Shown piece by piece: positions 3,416-31,164 of a DNA stretch of 33,590 bases (the stretch's first letter is position 1; every line of letters begins with the position of its first letter). The notes under the pieces are model-generated. The model saw nothing but the letters and a program-made list of their open reading frames with translations. It ran no database searches and had not been told where the DNA came from. The stretch spans positions 1 to 33,590 of IMG/VR virus record IMGVR_UViG_3300020045_006106; one strand, given 5' to 3'. The position numbers were made by a program, and so were the translations under genes. The DNA is from a virus (Duplodnaviria > Caudoviricetes).

Positions 3416-3840
3416 TGAGCTTCTCCGGTGATGTTGCCGCCCACATCGAGAAATGCCGCAAGCGATTGGCATATACTGCCAAGACAGCTACGCTAGCCGT
3501 GTGTAACGATGCGCGACTAGTTGGCCCAAGCGTTGCCAATCCAGATGCTAACAAGGGCGGGCGGATGCCGGTTGATACAAATAACTTGCGCAACTCTATG
3601 GCGGCGTCAATATCTGGACTTCCATCAGGACAGACTGAAGGCAATGAAAAAAAGACCGGCGATGATGTTGCAGCGATGTTAATCCGCTGGAAGCCTGGTC
3701 AATCGCTATTTTATGCAGGATTTACCGCTAACTACGCTCGCCAAATGGAGTACCGCTACGGATTTATGCGCGGTGCCGTTATGAAGTGGGGCGAGTTAGT
3801 CCGTAAAGCCGCCGAAGAATCAAAGAGGAAAATACCATGA
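3415..3840 (+). CDS. Neck / tail completion protein (HK97 gp10-like)
   Basis: 'PVDTNNLRNS' and 'YARQMEY' motifs; TAATG coupling. Confidence 0.75.
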   Translation: MSFSGDVAAHIEKCRKRLAYTAKTATLAVCNDARLVGPSVANPDANKGGRMPVDTNNLRNSMAASISGLPSGQTEGNEKKTGDDVAAMLIRWKPGQSLFYAGFTANYARQMEYRYGFMRGAVMKWGELVRKAAEESKRKIP

Positions 3841-4424
3841 TCAAAGTTCCCGAAAGTTGCCTCCCGTTGTTGCGCGAGCACCGCACCCATTACACTGGTG
3901 ATTTCGTTGCTGCCTACAATGCTGAATTGCAGGCCACATACGAAGGCATTAAGAACTATCTTCCGAGCGAGGGTGTCATTCTGGACATTGGCGCTGGCAT
4001 GGCCGGTATCGATATCCTGCTAGATCGGCATTACGGTGGTGAGGCAAAGATCACGCTATTGGACAAGCAAGGCAAATCAGAAAAGATCAATGCCGGATTC
4101 CACAAATCTGCAGATACCTTTTCGAACTATCATGACTTTGACTTGGCGATTGAAATGCTTGGCACTAATGGTGTTGAAAATATTCGCACTGTTGATATTG
4201 CTAACGAAAAATTCCCGCGCTCGCCATTTACGGTGGTCATCAGCCTTTTAAGCTGGGGATTCCACTACCCGATCAGCACCTATTCGCCAAGGGTCAAGAA
4301 GGGCGGCATTATCATTGCCGACATTCGCCGCGATACCGATGGAATCAAACAGCTAGCCGAGTATGGCGCCATTACTGTTGTGCATAACGCCAAGAAATAT
4401 CAGCGCGTGGTCGTGCAATGCTAG
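3837..4424 (+). CDS. Class I SAM-dependent methyltransferase-like protein
   Basis: Motif I 'VILDIGAGMAG', acidic end of strand 2 'TLLD', late 'KKGGIII'. Confidence 0.75.
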   Translation: MIKVPESCLPLLREHRTHYTGDFVAAYNAELQATYEGIKNYLPSEGVILDIGAGMAGIDILLDRHYGGEAKITLLDKQGKSEKINAGFHKSADTFSNYHDFDLAIEMLGTNGVENIRTVDIANEKFPRSPFTVVISLLSWGFHYPISTYSPRVKKGGIIIADIRRDTDGIKQLAEYGAITVVHNAKKYQRVVVQC

Positions 4425-5113
4425 TGTTCGTTTGCTTCAAATGGGAGCGAATCAAGACCGGATTTCAATTGCCTGCCGTGTGCAATTACACCGCGCATCA
4501 CGTCAATGTGCTGCGCAACATGCTGGAGCGTCACGTAAAAATACCACACCGGCTGATTTGCGTTACTGATAATCCCGAGTATATCGATCCGAGAATCGAA
4601 ACGGTTGAGCTGTGGGATAAGTGCCGAGATTTGGGTGGGTGCTATAACCGCCTATGGGTATTTAGCGAAGAAGCGCGCGAGCTGTTCGGTGATCGCTTTG
4701 TCTGCATTGATCTTGATTGCGTGATCGTAAACGACTGTACCGATTTATTTACTCGGGAAGATGACTTTATTATCAACTCATACAACCCTTGCGCGCGCAA
4801 CCCAATCGACCAGCATTACAACGGCAGCATGTTTATGGTTACCGCTGGCGCCCGCAGACAGCTGTGGGATGATTTCGACCCTGAGTCATCGCCGGATATA
4901 GTGCAAGCCGACCCAAACACCATAGGCACAGATCAGGCGTGGATTAGACACAAGCTAGGCAAAGGCGAGACAAGATGGGGTAACGCCGATGGAGTCTACG
5001 AGGCGCGCCAGATCAACCACTATTTATTGCCCGATGCCAAGATAATATTTTTCTCTGGTCGCCGTGACCCGAGCGAAAACAAATACCGATGGGTGCAGAG
5101 GCATTGGCTATGA
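4418..5113 (+). CDS. Putative glycosyltransferase (GT-A fold, GT8-like)
   Basis: 'LICVTD', DxD motif 'CIDLDCVI', 'NGSMF', 'TDQAWI', 'IIFFSGRRDP'. Confidence 0.8.
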   Translation: MLVFVCFKWERIKTGFQLPAVCNYTAHHVNVLRNMLERHVKIPHRLICVTDNPEYIDPRIETVELWDKCRDLGGCYNRLWVFSEEARELFGDRFVCIDLDCVIVNDCTDLFTREDDFIINSYNPCARNPIDQHYNGSMFMVTAGARRQLWDDFDPESSPDIVQADPNTIGTDQAWIRHKLGKGETRWGNADGVYEARQINHYLLPDAKIIFFSGRRDPSENKYRWVQRHWL

Positions 5114-5766
5114 TCACGATTGCTTGCGTATTAAAAACCGGTGGATGGAAAAACCGACATATCAACGTCGAGTATCACCCACGCCAAGTGATTTGGCTGC
5201 GTGATCAGGTGGCGCGGCACGTTAAGTGCGATTACCGGTTCGTGTGCTTTTCTGATGTCGAGATTGAAGGTGTAGAGGTGATACCGCTAACCGATAATCT
5301 ACCTGGTTGGTGGAGTAAGCTGGAATTGCTTAAGCGCGATATGGGCAAGGTGTTTTACCTAGACCTAGACACCGTGATCATTGACGACATAACCCACATG
5401 GTTAAATACGATCACAAGTTCTCGGTGTTGCGCAATTTGTCGAGCAAGGCGCCGGGACGAATCGGCTCTGGCATAATGGCGTGGAACGGTGACTATTCGC
5501 ATATCTACCGCAAGTTTATGGAATCGCCAGAAAAGTACATGGCGGAATATACGACTTCAGATCGCTGGGGGGATCAGTCACTAATCCAAGAATTTATGAA
5601 TGGCAAGTTTGAGTTTTTTCAGGATATTTTCCCCGCTCAAATGGGCAGTTATAAGTTTGATTTCGCGCAAGGTAATCCATGGCGCGGAACAAGAATTGTT
5701 ATTTTTCACGGACAACCTAAGCCTTGGGAGACTGCCCACGAATGGGTTCCAAAGTTGCCTTCATAA
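5110..5766 (+). CDS. Putative glycosyltransferase (GT-A fold, GT8-like)
   Basis: 'WWSKLEL', DxD 'YLDLDTVI', 'GDQSLI', 'IFHGQPKPW'; ATG 5110 overlaps upstream TGA. Confidence 0.85.
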   Translation: MITIACVLKTGGWKNRHINVEYHPRQVIWLRDQVARHVKCDYRFVCFSDVEIEGVEVIPLTDNLPGWWSKLELLKRDMGKVFYLDLDTVIIDDITHMVKYDHKFSVLRNLSSKAPGRIGSGIMAWNGDYSHIYRKFMESPEKYMAEYTTSDRWGDQSLIQEFMNGKFEFFQDIFPAQMGSYKFDFAQGNPWRGTRIVIFHGQPKPWETAHEWVPKLPS

Positions 5767-6338
5767 TCGCTACCGGCCCAAGCCTAACGCAATCCGATGT
5801 TGATATGGTGCGCGGCAAAGGTGCGGTTTATGCGGTTAATAACGCCGTGTTCTTGGCGCCTTTCGCTGATGTACATTATGCGTGCGATGAAATTTGGTGG
5901 AAAACTTACTGTCCTGTTAGGCCTGATTGGTTTACTGGGGAGCGGTTGACAATATCGCCATATCATTACCGGTTTGATGCGGTAAAAATACCCTCGGAAT
6001 ACACCGGCACGTTTGGAGATGGATTTGGCCGGTCAGCGGTTCGCACTGGTGGAAATAGTGGATTCCAAGCACTAAACCTTGCCATTATTCGCGGATTCAA
6101 AACTATTTGCCTATTGGGGTTTGATCACCAGCAAACGGACGGAAAGGCGCACTTTCATGGCGATCACCCAAAGGGCATGGGTAACGGCAAAGCCACTGAT
6201 ATATGGATCAGGGCAATGAATAAAGCGGCGGCTAACACATACGGCGCAAAAGTGATAAACTGCACCAGAGAAACCGCATTGACGTGTTTTGACCGTATGC
6301 CATTAGAGGATTTTATTCGTGAATACTGCAATTCTTGA
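5742..6338 (+). CDS. DUF115/Maf/CstII-like Rossmann-fold putative glycosyltransferase
   Basis: 'IIATGPSL', 'AVNN', 'NSGFQALNLA', 'ICLLGFD', 'VINCT' motifs; start taken at ATG 5742 (RBS GGGAG). Confidence 0.65.
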   Translation: MGSKVAFIIATGPSLTQSDVDMVRGKGAVYAVNNAVFLAPFADVHYACDEIWWKTYCPVRPDWFTGERLTISPYHYRFDAVKIPSEYTGTFGDGFGRSAVRTGGNSGFQALNLAIIRGFKTICLLGFDHQQTDGKAHFHGDHPKGMGNGKATDIWIRAMNKAAANTYGAKVINCTRETALTCFDRMPLEDFIREYCNS

Positions 6339-6720
6339 GGCGTTTTTAGAAAAGCTTGAGGAGTTGGGTATTTCACCAGCCTTACCAGTTGCATGGCCGG
6401 GCATTAATTTAGACCCGCCCGATTCTGGAATGTGGCTAGAGGTTTTGTTCTTCCCCAATGAAACGGAAAACGTAGCATGGGGAGCAGATGCGCCAGTCAA
6501 TGCAAAAGGTTTTTTTCAGGTATCAGTTTTTTATCGCCCCGGTATTGGGCAAATTCAGCCATCGGCAATAGCGGATTTAATCATCGCGCATTACCCGAAA
6601 GGGCTAAAGTTTATCGGTGACGTTGGGGTTATCAAAAAGCCTTGGCAGTCGCCAGCAGTAACGGGCAGCGATAGATTGTTTATCCCTGTTTCGATCCCTT
6701 ATAGCGGACTTTTAAAATGA
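6319..6720 (+). CDS. Tail terminator-like protein (DUF4128-like)
   Basis: 'VAWPG..DPP...WLEV', 'GFFQVSVF..PG.G', 'IPVSIPY'; upstream of tail tube. Confidence 0.8.
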   Translation: MNTAILEAFLEKLEELGISPALPVAWPGINLDPPDSGMWLEVLFFPNETENVAWGADAPVNAKGFFQVSVFYRPGIGQIQPSAIADLIIAHYPKGLKFIGDVGVIKKPWQSPAVTGSDRLFIPVSIPYSGLLK

Positions 6721-7253
6721 TTGATTTTTATCAAGACTATATAAAGTCAATTATTGAATATTTCCCTGAAACAGGAGAAATGATATGGAAAAAAAGAACA
6801 AGCGAGCACCATAAATCGCCAAAAGTATTGAATGCGTGGAATTCAAACTTTGCAGGTAAGGTGGTTGGCTCCATTGGGAAAAATGGATATAAAAGCGCAG
6901 CAATAATGAATAAATACAAGGTGCTTGTCCATCATATCGCATGGATATATATGACAGGTGCGTGGCCAGAAAAATATATAGACCATAAAAATGGAGTAAG
7001 AACTGATAACAAATTTGATAATCTTAGACCGGCAAATGAGTCTGAAAACTCATTAAATGCAAAGATAAGATGCGACAATAAAAGCGGACACAAAAATGTT
7101 TTTTGGAATTGTCGAGTTAAAAAGTGGAATGTTAAGTTATCGGTTAACAGAAAACCAATACATATAGGTTATTTTGATGATTTAAGCGCAGCCGCTTTGG
7201 CTGCTGAAAGCGCAAGAGTTACCTATCATAAGGACTTTGCTAGACACAGATAA
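6717..7253 (+). CDS. HNH homing endonuclease with AP2-like C-terminal domain
   Basis: 'YFPETG', 'IDHKNGVRTDNKFDNLR', 'NKSGHKNVFW', 'HIGYFDD..AA.A'; AT-rich relative to flanks. Confidence 0.9.
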   Translation: MIDFYQDYIKSIIEYFPETGEMIWKKRTSEHHKSPKVLNAWNSNFAGKVVGSIGKNGYKSAAIMNKYKVLVHHIAWIYMTGAWPEKYIDHKNGVRTDNKFDNLRPANESENSLNAKIRCDNKSGHKNVFWNCRVKKWNVKLSVNRKPIHIGYFDDLSAAALAAESARVTYHKDFARHR

Positions 7254-19600: not shown

Positions 19601-21099
19601 TGGGCGTAAAAATTTATGATCAGCAGCAAATAACAGGGCTGACAATCTCTGGCACTACAGACGGTGCGGGGAGCTGGACGATAGGGGTTGATACGTCTGC
19701 GCAACTTTCTTCCATGCCAGTTAATTCTCCCGGGTTATTGATTAAGGTCTCGAATACTAATGCGTCCCCTCGGTGGGCGGGCATCAGAACAACTGGAGTT
19801 GGAACGGCAGAATTTCAAAAGGATATGACTGGCAACTCTTCTGAGTTTTGGTTTATCCCGTTCACTCTGCCGGACAGCGACCTAGATTTTTATCTTGAGT
19901 CAACGGATGTAACATTCCGAGTGATTTGCGCTCTGGATGAACTGTGGGTTTTATTCCCGATAGCTTCGAGACCAACCGTACCTAGCACTGGCACATCGTG
20001 GTTATCGCGCACACTGACCGATTGCGCCGAGAATAGCGCTGTGATAACCACCGGATCAAGATGGCGGCCGACCGGTGAGACTACAAATCTTACTAATGCA
20101 TTATCAGGCCAGCAGCTTGTTAAGCTGGACGGTTCAAAGGCAGTTGAGTTCAATACAGGCGGCGCGTCTCTTTCTGTTATTGGGTATCACACGGGCACCA
20201 CGACGTGGCCAGCGTGGCTATCAGATACGGTTAGTTATACTGCAAACAGCTCATGGCAAAACGCGGCAACATCTTATCCAGGAAAGCGGCTGCTTTTTCT
20301 TCAGTGGGACAAAACTGGGGCGGGGTTTGATATTGATTTTAGAGCTAGGGGGTCTAGCTACAACCCAACTTCAGCGGGCGTACAAGTTGATGAAAGTTTT
20401 TTTTCGCCAATGGACGCCAGCGGGCAGTGGGACTATTTTGCAGAGACAGGATCAACGGGGACATTGTACGCACTAGCGACCATTCCGGATGTTGAGACGG
20501 CTGCGATCAATATAACTAACATCGATCAACTCATAGCGGGGGAAGAGTCGGTATTAACGGTAGATAGTCCGCTTGTTATAGACTCGGTTTCAGTTTCGGA
20601 CGGCAGTGTTACGGTAATTTGTGACGCCGTTTCTATTGATGACGAAAACGCAAATTTTTTTGCACCTGAATGGACTGATGGCGAGGTAGGATTAAAATAC
20701 GGGGCGGTAACTGTTACAGCTACTGACGGTACGGATATAACTGAACCGTACTCCGATGACATAGGTATCGAATCCGGATATAGCGTAGTCACGCTAGATA
20801 GCGTATCGCCCAGCAACTACGGTGCAATTGCAACGCCACCGTATTCGCCAGCTCTGGAGATTGGAAGTCAGGTAAGATTCAATCCACTTGAGATCACTGT
20901 TAGTTTGAATGGGGTGGTCGGGTCTGTTGGGGATTTTGAAGGGGTTTCTTCGATAGCGGATTTAACTGGCGGGGTCGTAAGATTTGGCACGATAACAGTC
21001 AGTGGCGGCGGAGGAGTGGTTACAGATGGCGCCCTAACCAGCATCAGCCTAACCTCTATCGGGCTGACATCAATCAGTCCGACTTCGGTGGGGCTATGA
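19600..21099 (+). CDS. Large acidic Ser/Thr-rich protein, putative virion-associated
   Basis: 499 aa; C-terminal LTSIS/LTSIG pentapeptide repeats. Confidence 0.55.
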   Translation: MGVKIYDQQQITGLTISGTTDGAGSWTIGVDTSAQLSSMPVNSPGLLIKVSNTNASPRWAGIRTTGVGTAEFQKDMTGNSSEFWFIPFTLPDSDLDFYLESTDVTFRVICALDELWVLFPIASRPTVPSTGTSWLSRTLTDCAENSAVITTGSRWRPTGETTNLTNALSGQQLVKLDGSKAVEFNTGGASLSVIGYHTGTTTWPAWLSDTVSYTANSSWQNAATSYPGKRLLFLQWDKTGAGFDIDFRARGSSYNPTSAGVQVDESFFSPMDASGQWDYFAETGSTGTLYALATIPDVETAAINITNIDQLIAGEESVLTVDSPLVIDSVSVSDGSVTVICDAVSIDDENANFFAPEWTDGEVGLKYGAVTVTATDGTDITEPYSDDIGIESGYSVVTLDSVSPSNYGAIATPPYSPALEIGSQVRFNPLEITVSLNGVVGSVGDFEGVSSIADLTGGVVRFGTITVSGGGGVVTDGALTSISLTSIGLTSISPTSVGL

Positions 21100-21602
21100 T
21101 AAGTAAGCCCCTGCTAATTGCGATTGCCGTGTTAGTCACGCTGCTTGGATTGGCCTCGTTTGGCCTTTACAAGCAAGTGCAGGCCAATGGCGCGTTGGCG
21201 TCCAAGTTGAAGCAGCAAAAGGCCAATGTGTTTGCGCACCATGTCGCATGGAAATTTACCGATGGCGTAATGTCATCACAAAGAGAGACTGTTAAGAATG
21301 CAGAAGTTAAAACCGATTTACATGCTGGCAGTGTTGCTGCCGCTGACGATGTTGCAAACAGGTTGCGCGACCAACTCGAAACCTACATTGCAGAATCCGC
21401 CGATGATCGTGCCGGATTTGCCGAGTATCGCAAAGCAGCCGAAGCAAAGCATAGAGTGCTTGCCGACATGTACCGAGAAGCTGACCGCCGCGCGGGAATC
21501 TACGCTGATCAAGCTGACAAAAACAAAATAGCAGGTGATGCGTGCGAGTCTGCTTACGATGAGCTTGTCGGCTGGATTCGCAAAACATACGGCGTAAAAT
21601 AA
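21096..21602 (+). CDS. Inner-membrane spanin (Rz-like, DUF2514-like)
   Basis: N-terminal TM, helical body, 'ADRRAGIYADQAD...AGDACESAYD'. Confidence 0.8.
   Translation: MISKPLLIAIAVLVTLLGLASFGLYKQVQANGALASKLKQQKANVFAHHVAWKFTDGVMSSQRETVKNAEVKTDLHAGSVAAADDVANRLRDQLETYIAESADDRAGFAEYRKAAEAKHRVLADMYREADRRAGIYADQADKNKIAGDACESAYDELVGWIRKTYGVK
21298..21531 (+). CDS. Outer-membrane spanin lipoprotein (Rz1-like), embedded in +1 frame
   Basis: Signal peptide with lipobox-like 'LQTGC', Pro-rich mature part with CLPTC; fully nested in the Rz-like gene. Confidence 0.75.
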   Translation: MQKLKPIYMLAVLLPLTMLQTGCATNSKPTLQNPPMIVPDLPSIAKQPKQSIECLPTCTEKLTAARESTLIKLTKTK

Positions 21603-21726
21603 AACCGTGGATATACGGATCGCCCATCAAAATAACGTGCCAACTTTTAAGCCTTTGATTTAGCTATTAAATTTCAGGCTTAATTTTGGAGTTTTGCTGG
21701 GTAGGCCGTATATTCCGCTGTTAGCC
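21599..21726. repeat. attC-like boundary site (left end of cassette array)
   Basis: Imperfect palindrome AAC-CGTGG-ATATACGG...CCGTATAT-TCCGCT-GTTAGCC with inner AAGCCT...AGGCTT stem; GTTAGCC 21720-21726 is the core site of cassette 1. Confidence 0.65.
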
Positions 21727-21738
21727 AAGGGGGCTTCG

Positions 21739-22341
21739 ATGAAATGTTATCAGTGCGACCGACCTCCTATGTATGAAGTGGGAGAAGCGTGCATTCCCCT
21801 TTGTCTTGAATGTTATTTCAAGTTAATGCAAATTGAGCAGCAGAAATATGAAAATAATGAGCGCATGTTAAATTACCTTCATGACCAAGCTTCTGCAATT
21901 GTGGGAATACCTTCTTTGTTTCCACGCTTTCCGCCTCGCCCTCAACCAGTAATAGTTTCAGGAGCCAAATTGCAAAATATTAATGTTAATAACAGCGTTG
22001 TTGGAACTATTAATACCGGATCTATAGGAACCGTAGATCAATCAATTAGCGCATTGATCCAAACCGGTGAACCTAAACTTGCAGAGGCAATTAAGTCTCT
22101 TTCGGAAGCAATATTACAAAGTGGTGATCTAACTCGGAATCAAAAGAACGAACTTATAGAAAGTTTGAGTGTTCTTTCAAAGGAGGCTGCCACTCCTTTA
22201 GAGCAACGGCAAAATACTGTTGCAGTATCTCTTCTTGAGAAAGCTATTAAGCTAACGAGCCTGGCCAATGACATTACCGACGTGTGTAATAAGTGGTGGC
22301 CGGTTCTTGCTGTAGCATTTGGTGTTTCTCAAAACGGCTAA
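21739..22341 (+). CDS. Cassette 1 gene: 200-aa hypothetical with N-terminal CxxC..CxxC
   Basis: RBS AAGGGGG just after core site; ATG 21739; TAA stop lies inside R'' GGCTAAC. Confidence 0.8.
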   Translation: MKCYQCDRPPMYEVGEACIPLCLECYFKLMQIEQQKYENNERMLNYLHDQASAIVGIPSLFPRFPPRPQPVIVSGAKLQNINVNNSVVGTINTGSIGTVDQSISALIQTGEPKLAEAIKSLSEAILQSGDLTRNQKNELIESLSVLSKEAATPLEQRQNTVAVSLLEKAIKLTSLANDITDVCNKWWPVLAVAFGVSQNG

Positions 22342-22449
22342 CAAAGCAATCAAACGGATGGATTTTAAGTTGCGCTTTTGCCATTCCGCTTCGCTCCATT
22401 TTATGGCAAAAGCGCAACTTAAAAACCACCGTTTATCGCAACGTTATGA
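22336..22449 (+). repeat. attC site 1 (114 bp, canonical geometry)
   Basis: R'' GGCTAAC, 5-nt spacer, L'' AATCAAAC pairing with GTTTATC with one extra base, perfect 22-bp stem 22363-22384/22403-22424, R' GTTATGA. Confidence 0.9.
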
Positions 22450-22656
22450 CTTGCGCATCATCGCTTGAGAATATCGCTCAGTACTTGTGTAGTCGTAACT
22501 ATTCCCGCCCGTCTTGGTCTTCATGTATGAGACTCCACCTACACATTCCCACCCGTTTTCCAGCATCACACAAATATTTGTCGCTAGCTGCCGTTCGCAC
22601 GTATACCAAACAACTTCATATTCATATTTAACTTTTTTCTTTTTAAATGGCCACAT
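22444..22656 (-). CDS. Cassette 2 gene: 70-aa hypothetical
   Basis: RBS GGAG; 'NGWECVGGVS...YSQAMMRK' resembles DUF1737-like small proteins; stop is the TTA of core GTTA. Confidence 0.7.
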   Translation of the reverse strand: MWPFKKKKVKYEYEVVWYTCERQLATNICVMLENGWECVGGVSYMKTKTGGNSYDYTSTERYSQAMMRKS

Positions 22657-22679
22657 AGATCTCACTCCGTATTAATTGG

Positions 22680-22766
22680 TCATAACAAGGCGTTCCATCA
22701 CGGATGCCGCAAGAGCTCGCTCTGTAGTTGTTTTTGGTTCTGGCACCGCTGAACTCGGCGTTATGC
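22680..22766 (+). repeat. attC site 2 (87 bp)
   Basis: TCATAAC-AAGGC-GTTCCATCACGGATGCC...GGCACCGCTGAAC-TCGGC-GTTATGC. Confidence 0.85.
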
Positions 22767-23036
22767 TTGCCTGTAGTCGTAGATGTTTAGTGCGTATTCG
22801 TCAGGGTCGCATCCTCGCTCAAAAGCGCCGACCAAATAATTCGCCCGCTCAATTTTTTCACGAAGCCTGTCATTTTCTGCCGCCATTCCTAAGCACAACG
22901 CTTGCACCTCTTCAAAATGCACGTCGCTGCCGTGAATCCATCCATTAACTTTTTCAAAACTGCAATCAAATGGCAGTGTTATACCATCTACAGTTTCGGC
23001 CAGAGCTTTTCCGCTTTGGTCTATCGTTAGGCTCAT
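22761..23036 (-). CDS. Cassette 3 gene: 91-aa hypothetical phage-type protein
   Basis: RBS AGGA; short coiled segment 'AAENDRLREKIE'; stop is the TTA of core GTTA. Confidence 0.7.
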   Translation of the reverse strand: MSLTIDQSGKALAETVDGITLPFDCSFEKVNGWIHGSDVHFEEVQALCLGMAAENDRLREKIERANYLVGAFERGCDPDEYALNIYDYRQA

Positions 23037-23062
23037 AATTCAGTATCCTATCGTGGTTGTTT

Positions 23063-23149
23063 GCATAACAAGTCATTACAGCACCGACGCGGTTAGAGTC
23101 GGCAAATTAATTACTCTCGGTCAGCGCGCGGCTGAACTCGGCGTTATGA
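23063..23149 (+). repeat. attC site 3 (87 bp)
   Basis: GCATAAC-AAGTC-ATTACAGCACCGACGC...GCGCGGCTGAAC-TCGGC-GTTATGA. Confidence 0.85.
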
Positions 23150-23389
23150 CTATTGCCACTCTGAAAGAAGCTCGCCTAATCTTGCACGCAACTTATCGTC
23201 AAAAGGCATTCCATGTTCAAGCTGAGCTTTTATTGATTCAACTTTCTCAGCAAGCATCTTTTCGCCCCATGAAACACCGCATCTAAAAATATCAGCGGCC
23301 ATACTCGGCTTTCCAATATCATCCCCAAATCCATGAACTATAAGTCCAGTTTCTTCCGTTTTTGTTAAAGGTTTTTTGTGCATACTCAT
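23150..23389 (-). CDS. Cassette 4 gene: 79-aa hypothetical phage-type protein
   Basis: RBS GGAG; stop TAG immediately adjacent to core site. Confidence 0.7.
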   Translation of the reverse strand: MSMHKKPLTKTEETGLIVHGFGDDIGKPSMAADIFRCGVSWGEKMLAEKVESIKAQLEHGMPFDDKLRARLGELLSEWQ

Positions 23390-23414
23390 AGTTTTATCAC
23401 TCCGTATTAATTGG

Positions 23415-23500
23415 TCATAACAAGGCGTTACAGCGCGGATGCTGCAAGAGTTCGCCTTGTAGTTTGTTTAAATTGGGCACCGCTGAACTTGGCGTTACAT
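23415..23500 (+). repeat. attC site 4 (86 bp)
   Basis: TCATAAC-AAGGC-GTTACAGCGCGGATGC...GCACCGCTGAAC-TTGGC-GTTACAT; closely similar to attC site 2. Confidence 0.85.
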
Positions 23501-23662
23501 TCACTTGCCTGCCAGCTCTAACAGGCATTTTAATTTCGCGTTTTCACGTATTAGCGGTAGTGTTTCAGACTCCCATTTTTTGTGAGCTTTGTACTGTTGT
23601 ATGCAAGCTCCGGTAACAAATGACGCATACGCCGCAATAATTAAAAATCCAAAATATTCCAC
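23501..23662 (-). CDS. Cassette 5 gene: 53-aa small membrane protein (not in the ORF track)
   Basis: GTG start after AGGAG; MEYFGFLIIAAYASFVTGACIQQYKAHKKW...LELAGK; TGA adjacent to core site. Confidence 0.65.
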   Translation of the reverse strand: MEYFGFLIIAAYASFVTGACIQQYKAHKKWESETLPLIRENAKLKCLLELAGK

Positions 23663-23692
23663 AATACACTCCTAAATTAGTTCGCTATGTAA

Positions 23693-23720
23693 ATGTAACC
23701 AGTCGCAGCAACTGGACGGA
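23693..23720 (+). repeat. Left arm of a truncated attC site 5
   Basis: ATGTAAC (complement of GTTACAT 23494-23500), 5-nt spacer CAGTC, GCAGCAACTGGACG; no adjacent right arm. Confidence 0.6.
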
Positions 23721-23721
23721 A

Positions 23722-28789: not shown

Positions 28790-28818
28790 TTGACACCATA
28801 AATATTTGCGCCTATTAT
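28790..28818 (+). promoter_or_regulatory. Rightward sigma70-type promoter
   Basis: -35 TTGACA (28790-28795), 17-bp spacer, -10 TATTAT (28813-28818). Confidence 0.8.
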
Positions 28819-28847
28819 GTGCTAACACTAACCAATGAGGAAATAGC

Positions 28848-29448: not shown

Positions 29449-29565
29449 ATGAAATACACACGCACCCCAACCGGCATTATGTGCCAATACGGCGGGCACA
29501 AGGTAACCGGCGCAAGCCTAAAAGAAGCTACCAGTAAAATGTTTGTTTTGATGAGGAGAAAATAA
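29449..29565 (+). CDS. 38-aa hypothetical (not in the ORF track)
   Basis: RBS GAGG, fills the gap exactly, TAATG coupling. Confidence 0.5.
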   Translation: MKYTRTPTGIMCQYGGHKVTGASLKEATSKMFVLMRRK

Positions 29566-29852
29566 TGGAGCTAGCAAACGACATTATGGCGATATGGCGC
29601 GAAGATTTTGAGCGGCAACTTAAAAAACTTGGCTACGTCAATGCTCACTTAGAGAAAAACAATATTGGAAACTATTTGGATTTTGAGGTTGGCTCAATGT
29701 TTCGCGGATTCCTAATGGCCAAGCGCAATATGCCAGTTATTGAGCTTCCGCGCCCTTGGACTGATGAATATCAGCATCGTCACATTAACTTGCAGCACCT
29801 TGAAATTTACCTGCAATCTTCTGGCTACAAATACACGATAAAAGGTGAGTGA
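29565..29852 (+). CDS. Hypothetical protein
   Basis: RBS GAGGAG; 'REDFE', 'VIELP' typical of small phage proteins. Confidence 0.7.
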   Translation: MELANDIMAIWREDFERQLKKLGYVNAHLEKNNIGNYLDFEVGSMFRGFLMAKRNMPVIELPRPWTDEYQHRHINLQHLEIYLQSSGYKYTIKGE

Positions 29853-30012: not shown

Positions 30013-30089
30013 TGCAAGCAACTGTCCGCCGTCCATAGACAAAGGACAAACAAATCACACTAACCAGCTATAAACAAGAGGTAGAGATT

Positions 30090-30602
30090 ATGCAGGACCA
30101 TATTAAAAATATCCTCGCAATGCGAACGTCTACGGTAAAGAATTACGGATTACCAGGGGTTGATAGTAGCTTGCTTGGCAACGGGCTTGTGCGCATATTT
30201 GAGAGCAGCCGCGAGCAGCAAGAATCAATCACTCCACACAGCCACAAGTTTGATTTTTCATGCCTTGTGCTGTCTGGCGAGGTGGTTAACCGAACATGGG
30301 TTAAAGATTCAAATGGAGATGATTTTTACGTTAGCGAGCTTGAATATCAGGGTGAAATAGGACAATACAAAACCAGAGTTATCAACAATGAATCATACTC
30401 ATATTCTGATCGAAGATATAGAACCGGCGATTGGTACTCAATGAAGCATGATGAGATTCACTCAATATGGTTTAGTAAGGGCTGCCGCGTGCTATTCCTT
30501 GAAGGCGAGGTAAAGACTAATAAAACTGTAATTATTGAGCCATGCGTAAATGGTGAGCTTCTGAAAACATTTGAGGTTCGCGATTGGATGTTCAAACGTT
30601 AA
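30090..30602 (+). CDS. Cupin-like protein
   Basis: 'TPHSHKFDFSCLVLSG' and 'GDWYSM.HDEIHSI' resemble the two cupin metal-binding motifs. Confidence 0.6.
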   Translation: MQDHIKNILAMRTSTVKNYGLPGVDSSLLGNGLVRIFESSREQQESITPHSHKFDFSCLVLSGEVVNRTWVKDSNGDDFYVSELEYQGEIGQYKTRVINNESYSYSDRRYRTGDWYSMKHDEIHSIWFSKGCRVLFLEGEVKTNKTVIIEPCVNGELLKTFEVRDWMFKR

Positions 30603-30635
30603 TTTAACCCCCACTAACCACAGGAGTATGGAATT

Positions 30636-30812
30636 ATGAATGGCATAGAATTTCGATGGTTTCTCACTACTCAATATTTAGAAGACGCGACTAAAAACAT
30701 TTTTGGCGACAAAATGATTCTGCAATACCGCGAGCGATTAAACCCGATGGAAGCAGGCCTTCACCCTGCTATTTGGTCAGAGTGGCAAGATGTTCCATTC
30801 GCTAGATTTTAA
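30636..30812 (+). CDS. 58-aa hypothetical (not in the ORF track)
   Basis: RBS AGGAG; 'EFRW', 'ILQYR', 'WSEWQDVP' pattern seen in small phage proteins. Confidence 0.6.
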   Translation: MNGIEFRWFLTTQYLEDATKNIFGDKMILQYRERLNPMEAGLHPAIWSEWQDVPFARF

Positions 30813-30843
30813 CCCCTACCCGCTATAAATACAGGTGAATATT

Positions 30844-31164
30844 ATGGAGACAGTAAAAATATCTCTGCACGGTAGAAATCCGATAGTCGGTGATGTGGCA
30901 ATTGAGCTTTTCAATCAGTTTCTGATCAGAGATAAGCTTGCGGGTCGTTTTTGGGTGCATTGCGAATCTAAAGATAACTGGCACCTTGAACTGATGCCGC
31001 ATTGCATAGCGTGCAAAATTGAGGTCACCGGCAATAACATTGACGACCTAAAAACAAACATAGGCCTAATCCATTCGTCAGTTGCGATTGATAATCCTGA
31101 CACATGCGCACTATATAAAATGCTTCTTGACGCATCAAAACCCGAAATTGAAACCGAGGAATAA
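30844..31164 (+). CDS. Hypothetical protein
   Basis: RBS AGGTG before ATG 30844. Confidence 0.6.
   Translation: METVKISLHGRNPIVGDVAIELFNQFLIRDKLAGRFWVHCESKDNWHLELMPHCIACKIEVTGNNIDDLKTNIGLIHSSVAIDNPDTCALYKMLLDASKPEIETEE

Follow-up and report, generated by a model that had tools for sequence, protein, structure and literature searches.

We describe a phage-borne cassette array in a stretch of DNA of 33,590 nucleotides (nt) from IMG/VR virus record IMGVR_UViG_3300020045_006106 (hereafter the window). The window is part of the genome of a tailed phage, with a capsid fragment, tail genes, an endolysin and an Rz protein encoded on the + strand and RecT, YqaJ and YopX on the - strand. Between the late genes and the leftward early operon, an attI-like site heads five single-gene cassettes, the first of bacterial type and the remaining four carrying reversed genes. 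We interpret this array, with good confidence, as an attI-headed phage integron platform that has no integrase on the contig, draws on a pool of reversed-gene cassettes and is likely worked by the integron integrase (IntI) of Cellvibrio. The structure of the array, the polarity of its sites, its variable content, breakpoints at G|TT and a near-identical copy of the first cassette in an array of bacterial type were all observed. The features of the region are as follows (aa, amino acids).

21096..21602, + strand: Rz-like spanin, the final gene of the late operon and left flank of the array (phrog_312, E 3.7e-21; PF10721)
21599..21726, + strand: attI-like head site, crossover G21720|T21721
21721..22443, + strand: cassette 1, bacterial type, forward gene (copy in run X1; same cores and attC in loci L165, L167 and L170)
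21739..22341, + strand: cassette 1 gene, 200-aa protein, helical with N-terminal Cys pairs, 229 homologs
22336..22449, + strand: attC1, 114 nt, of the family of chromosomal sites in Cellvibrio, with a strong hairpin (107.7 bits)
22444..22656, - strand: cassette 2 gene, reversed, 70 aa (70-aa homologs at 91-94%)
22680..22766, + strand: attC2, 87 nt, short phage type (27.7 bits)
22761..23036, - strand: cassette 3 gene, reversed, 91 aa, mosaic (two residue ranges homologous to different loci)
23063..23149, + strand: attC3, 87 nt, short phage type (29.4 bits)
23150..23389, - strand: reversed cassette 4 gene of 79 aa, a short version of a phage gene (phrog_36891, weak)
23415..23500, + strand: attC4, 86 nt, short phage type (29.4 bits)
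23501..23662, - strand: reversed cassette 5 gene of 53 aa, starting at a GTG preceded by AGGAG
23693..23721, + strand: truncated attC5, of which only the left half is present and is fused to the following early gene at its stop codon
23722..28724, - strand: leftward early operon (small genes, YopX, YqaJ exonuclease, RecT), same direction as cassette genes 2-5

The original prediction had named ten core sequences in this region, all of which lie at the positions it gave, and its four complete attC-like sites (22336-22449, 22680-22766, 23063-23149 and 23415-23500) were borne out. The five single-gene units it listed are also present, although it had not given their strand, and genes 2-5 are on the minus strand. 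Its claim that the two cores of an assembled site mismatch holds for sites 1 and 4, which match at 4/7 positions, but not for sites 2 and 3, which match at 6/7. The right boundary site exists, but it had to be corrected to a truncated attC, which agrees at 28/28 nt with the left portion of a complete site in L075 and was matched, at 10 bits, by covariance model R3 only. The absence of an integrase holds for the contig, in which no match to PF00589 was found, and is limited to a linear contig that is about 52% complete. With at least two clustered attC sites and no intI nearby on this contig, the array is a cluster of attC sites lacking an integron integrase (CALIN), and it does not have the adjacent intI of a complete integron.

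The covariance-model analysis that the original prediction had proposed recovered all four sites. Model R1, built only from 21 bacterial attC sites, scored attC1-4 at 107.7, 27.7, 29.4 and 29.4 bits, all on the + strand, with the next independent match at 11.3 bits, and a heuristic scan of all 33,590 bases returned the same four sites and none besides. The sites have attC architecture, with R''/R' cores bearing AAC/GTT, 5-nt spacers and paired L''/L' boxes. Across 40 aligned sites the L-box helix is 94% paired, with two-sided changes at 6/6 pairs. In 38 unique box pairs from short phage sites, dropping position 4 of the left L box as the extrahelical base yielded 6.37/7 pairs, compared with 3.64/7 for shuffled L-box partners (0/2000 shuffles as high) and 4.37 for the best alternative on the right arm. 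The attC sites thus keep their normal polarity relative to the left boundary, and the genes alone are reversed; a minus-strand polarity of the array was rejected on the covariance-model and extra-base tests, both of which favoured the + strand. We parsed 93 phage units, 88 of which passed our core filter. The core at the start of a unit complements the end of the same unit over at least 7 nt in 83/93 units, whereas the two cores of an assembled site do so in only 5/61 cases, as expected of inserted circles. Among the individual sites, attC1 folds strongly (z -9.6), with a folding probability (pfold) of 0.34, and attC4 is 90-93% identical to sites in L003, L012 and L021. Two more distant phage contigs, L020 (positions 1324-1371) and L025, carry a 48-nt minimal attC together with reversed genes.

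The left boundary is, by sequence comparison, attI-like. Its GTT core heads the array and receives cassettes; an inverted box lies 5 nt upstream of this core and another GTT 29 nt upstream, and a ATATACGG motif is also found on the upstream side. In Cellvibrio, an inverted box precedes the core by 5 nt in the attI sites of several IntI clades, and an ATATAC/GTTATA motif lies 29 nt upstream; the elements of the phage head sites are spaced in the same way. Under a matrix built from 13 Cellvibrio attI sites, the window head ranked in the top 0.42% of 9,248 GTTR sites, and 13/14 head sites fell within the top 5%; as the head sites had been located with a motif drawn from the window, this matrix is the sole independent test. 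The head site is 84% identical over 127 nt to that of L002 and 83% identical to that of L034, with similarity stopping at GTTA and different first cassettes behind it. Short forms of the head site, seen in G006, do not have the long hairpin. We also asked whether the head site might be a degenerate form of attC; the sequence folds (z -3.7), but it has no extra L-box base and was matched by neither R1 nor R3. As for a Pc promoter driving the array, the head site contains no consensus promoter, and the five promoter matches in the region are at chance level (6.0 expected). An Rfam scan gave only chance miRNA-type matches below the gathering score. For comparison, attI1 is described as carrying direct repeats (PMC8946536).

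The first cassette links the array to bacterial integrons. A 3,200-nt contig from run X1 contains window positions 21720-22446 at 99.6% identity, with two substitutions and one gap in 727 nt. The copy has exact G|TT ends, is preceded by a host-type attC end and is followed by two more such sites, on a contig too short to place the array on a chromosome. attC1 itself has matches among the attC sites of 41/64 genomes of the genus that carries Cellvibrio in the titles of its metagenome-assembled genomes (MAGs), the best of them reaching 96%. Homologs of the cassette 1 protein lie between the same cores and attC at 3/9 bacterial loci (L165, L167 and L170), with partial signs of this arrangement at others. 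The protein itself had no match in Pfam, PHROGs, PADLOC or NCBIfam and no fold match at E<=0.001. Its gene is the only one of the five that points 5' to 3' towards its own attC, the usual but not universal arrangement. On these sequence relationships, cassette 1 is drawn from the host pool, and it likely entered the first position only recently.

Cassettes 2-5 are of a different kind. Gene 2 begins at an ATG behind GGAG, which gives 70 aa (73 aa if translated from the GTG at 22665), and in cassettes 2 and 3 the stop codon of the gene lies within the R' core. Gene 3 is a mosaic, in which residues 5-63 match the attC-free loci L193 (69%) and L112 (56%), and residues 53-89 a cassette gene of L210 (57%); gene 3 and attC3 occur together in run X7, with one difference in 294 nt. 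Gene 4 is 71% identical to an attC-free gene of >145 aa in L190, and its family extends to L191, L192 and seven GenBank phage records of other hosts, of which the 3/7 that were checked are attC-free. The cassette 5 protein had no family match in PHROGs or Pfam. The reversed orientation is general among the phage units, of which 81 are reversed, two forward (one marginal) and five ambiguous out of 88, compared with 29 forward, one reversed (marginal) and 19 ambiguous out of 49 in host arrays. In 50/82 reversed units, the TAA of the R' core serves as the stop codon. Mixed arrangements were seen at two loci. In the middle of the L212 array, amid reversed cassettes, stands a gene that is forward and bacterial-looking and is accompanied by a short attC of phage type. 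L222 (G033:C72:1-1190) has two long host-type attC sites and a forward gene of 174 aa; behind them comes a reversed cassette of phage type, whose attC is short. This piece, too short to place, possibly reflects movement of phage-pool cassettes into an array of host type.

Window-like arrays are present in 20 virus records in all, 19 of them found by pattern and protein scans beyond the window itself. A further eight array contigs lie within Cellvibrio MAGs and are phage-like where their length allowed judgement. In the 16-nt pattern scan, 43/50 loci had no array and were dropped as chance matches; in another scan of 23 loci, nine had arrays (on eight contigs), two a single short site, one a host-type cassette and 11 nothing. 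The 13 array-bearing records that were compared share between none and two of 16 window proteins, and the tape measure protein is common to none of them, so the system spans distant phages. In the comparison of related phages that the original prediction had proposed, cassette content varied behind the same head site. G001, a relative recovered with the same Rz query, has no array, and distal sites are missing from other phage arrays as well as from that of the window. GenBank phages yielded no such array, only the Shewanella prophage M16-3 (one attC) and weak flanking matches. Two records have two arrays each. L002 (7170-8130 and 12070-14500) and G006 show such paired arrays, each with its own head, and the pair in G002 converges from opposite strands.

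Comparison of these arrays indicated that cassettes move as units. Three pairs of records (G006/M125, M122/M127 and L216/L219) each share a cassette that lies behind an attC in one member and behind a head site in the other, with identity beginning at the GTT of the cassette; these pairs and the X1 copy thus place the breakpoints at G|TT, where they had been anticipated. The attC body behind the shared gene is kept in M122/M127, L216/L219, window/X1 and window/X7, partly kept in M127/L214 and replaced in the three pairs given below. Joints in run X4 were not used, on account of their short sides and unknown inserts.

The search for intI in phages and hosts that the original prediction had called for found the gene on the host side. 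An IntI above the TIGR02249 cut-off is encoded in 41/64 genomes of Cellvibrio, the likely host genus. No IntI was seen in the 20 array-bearing virus records, three of which encode a tyrosine recombinase: scanning gave no integron-integrase match for those of G004 and G018, and that of G087 was likened to the G004 protein by eye only. Three array-bearing records with terminal repeats, G008, G018 and G089, have no IntI, and two of them no tyrosine recombinase of any kind. Cellvibrio IntI would likely act in trans on the phage arrays. Cellvibrio genomes contain several IntI clades with distinct attI cores (L128-L163), and some have two intI genes. At L010 (4320-5771), a host-type forward cassette with a long attC lies directly behind a prophage integrase of the ordinary kind, distinct from IntI; a prophage may have integrated into an integron here.

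We propose that the attI-like site acts as a docking site at which chromosomal Cellvibrio IntI would insert and excise cassettes in trans at G|TT. Cassette 1 would be a recent entry from the host pool at the first position, and cassettes 2-5 would come from a phage-specific pool in which the attC keeps its normal polarity and the small gene is reversed, possibly such that genes 2-5 are read from the leftward early operon. The short attC sites have kept their R and L boxes and lost the long terminal hairpin, which would make recombination rare and may ease transcription through them. A second process swaps attC bodies and places unrelated genes within shared cassette ends, probably either by short-homology recombination involving phage annealing proteins such as RecT or by a top-strand IntI crossover at R''.

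Several observations weigh against this proposal. About half of the phage genome is absent from the contig, the fifth attC is truncated, and Cellvibrio is the likely host on the strength of attC identity and MAG titles. A BLAST search of 64 host genomes gave no match to the head site at E<=1e-10, and the site is therefore not a plain copy of a sampled attI. The pfold values, computed as in Loot 2017, are low for attC2 (0.003), attC3 (0.022) and attC4 (4e-5); more generally, pfold exceeds 0.1 in 17/68 phage-type sites versus 66/83 host sites, with medians of 0.008 and 0.31, respectively, and the minimum-energy folds of phage-type sites are mostly non-canonical. Recombination of low-pfold attC sites is described as reduced or undetected (Loot 2017). 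In addition, the attC body behind a shared gene has been replaced in G006/M125, G005/L209 and L227/L003, which canonical IntI chemistry alone does not predict. A second exchange thus occurs near R'', through top-strand crossover or homologous recombination.

Boundary repeats recombine genes in lambdoid and T4-type phages, and the attC-derived sequences might likewise serve mainly as short shared repeats through which RecT/Sak shuffle genes by homologous recombination, with only occasional use of IntI. Weak folding of the phage-type sites, the three attC body replacements, the mosaic gene 3 and the presence of RecT and YqaJ in the window all favour this explanation. We nevertheless regard it as unlikely, given that the L box is held paired by compensatory changes, that cores match across the unit and not within the assembled site, and that cassettes join exactly at the G|TT of the head, which has few bases in common with attC ends. 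It is more doubtful still that a recombinase encoded by the phage or a helper, with its gene in the missing part of the genome, works the array in place of host IntI. The incompleteness of the contig and a head site unlike all sampled host attI cores speak for such an enzyme, but the records with terminal repeats lack IntI, and in two cases any tyrosine recombinase, and attC1 belongs to a host family. Finally, the array could be a fossil, derived from a host integron block that was acquired in a single illegitimate recombination event and has been decaying since, in line with the truncated attC5 and the loss of distal sites in other arrays. We consider this highly improbable, since cassettes 2-5 are not host-like, cassette 1 is nearly identical to its copy in a bacterial-type array, and the same head site bears different cassettes in other phages, which contradicts a fossil unless these are assembly chimeras.

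The origin of integron cassettes is a long-open question, and the phage arrays bear on it. BLASTP among the 93 units found only two homologous protein pairs, and the ends of the units form recurrent frames around unrelated genes. Four unrelated genes, in 5 units, share one frame, with 33-38 nt in common on the left side and 44-51 nt on the right. Ten units have the frame of window cassettes 2 and 4, 12 have that of cassette 5 and three have that of cassette 3, with no homologous protein pair within any of these groups; three or four of the frame-B proteins were mis-called by the ATG-only rule. A gene carried as a cassette in G012 has a counterpart without attC in G015, at 89.5% identity; the homology stops at the start codon and approximately 15 nt before the stop. 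The shared ends on unrelated genes and the attC-free close homologs suggest that cassettes may be built from phage genes. A broader scheme, in which phage genes would be spliced from start to stop codon into a few reusable frames (leader, R'', attC and stop-bearing R' end), and host IntI would then pass them between unrelated phages of a single host genus and trade them with the host chromosome, is tentative, with somewhat below an even chance of being right. As a caveat, frame coupling past the 8-nt core is only modest over all pairs (21/46 versus 56/192, with non-independent pairs), so the argument for genesis rests on the specific long frames. Arrays also decay distally and can release genes, so that the change may instead have run from cassette to free gene. 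If true, the scheme would provide a visible and testable route of cassette genesis, and the occurrence of one gene in both cassette and free form, together with one frame around four genes, offers concrete substrates for a genesis experiment. Cassette genesis is mentioned only in passing in the portions consulted of Ghaly 2021 and of a bioRxiv paper on chromosomal integrons as anti-phage biobanks.

That attC sites occur in phages had been noted in the original prediction, and phage attC clusters have indeed been published: Qi 2023 (PMC9892861), in the sections available to us, reports 17 CALINs, three complete integrons and one In0 in 10,705 phages, as well as recombination of 5/6 tested phage attC sites by IntI1. 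As far as these sections go, the window array resembles the published CALINs in being a phage attC cluster without intI that carries small accessory genes, but differs in its phage-borne attI-like site, its reversed genes and a pool common to many phages of one host genus. In TJE1, the model case of that study, attC sites and genes lie forward on one strand, unlike in the window. None of the 14 phages in its Table S1 is a Cellvibrio phage (0/14), and the same sections mention divergent attC sites in P12002L. The CALIN of the Shewanella prophage M16-3, from the same study, is also an attI-headed array inside phage structural genes, with an attC (L207 3498-3609) of the same 114-nt family that is 74% identical to attC1 and scores 98 bits with R1, in another genus. 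It differs in that its attI is a near copy of a host attI, its genes are forward and a complete integron is also present in the prophage. The chromosomal integrons of Cellvibrio (intI, attI and attC sites of 111-140 nt) share the attC end boxes, the attC1 family and the attI architecture with the phage arrays; however, their cassettes are forward and their attC sites long and strongly folding, whereas phage-type sites are ~76-88 nt and weakly folding, with reversed genes and no adjacent intI. Top-strand, or inverted, insertion (Nivina 2016, PMC5027507) likewise gives a gene that faces attI, but as presented in the part of that paper we draw on it inverts gene and attC together, whereas in the window the gene alone is reversed. 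Our literature search, in which coverage of subscription papers was thin, found no account of attI-headed, reversed-gene phage arrays.

Elsewhere in the window, two glycosyltransferase-like genes and one sialyltransferase-like gene lie within the head-tail connector cluster (3837-6338), possibly related to virion glycosylation, and a free-standing HNH endonuclease occupies an AT-rich patch of the tail module (6717-7253). In the rightward early region, five intergenic stretches (29527-29594, 29718-29743, 30059-30092, 30603-30639 and 30808-30846) are 79-100% identical to the relative L001; most genes around them differ between the two phages, and they resemble shared boundary repeats. The divergent gap of this region (28808-28846) was assigned no L001 match.

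Taken together, the proposed arrangement would allow phages to run an integron without paying for an integrase, by keeping their own docking site and taking up cassettes from the chromosome of the host. A pool of reversed phage-gene cassettes, kept apart and spread across phages with few genes in common, would moreover add a route of gene flow between host and phage and from phage to phage.

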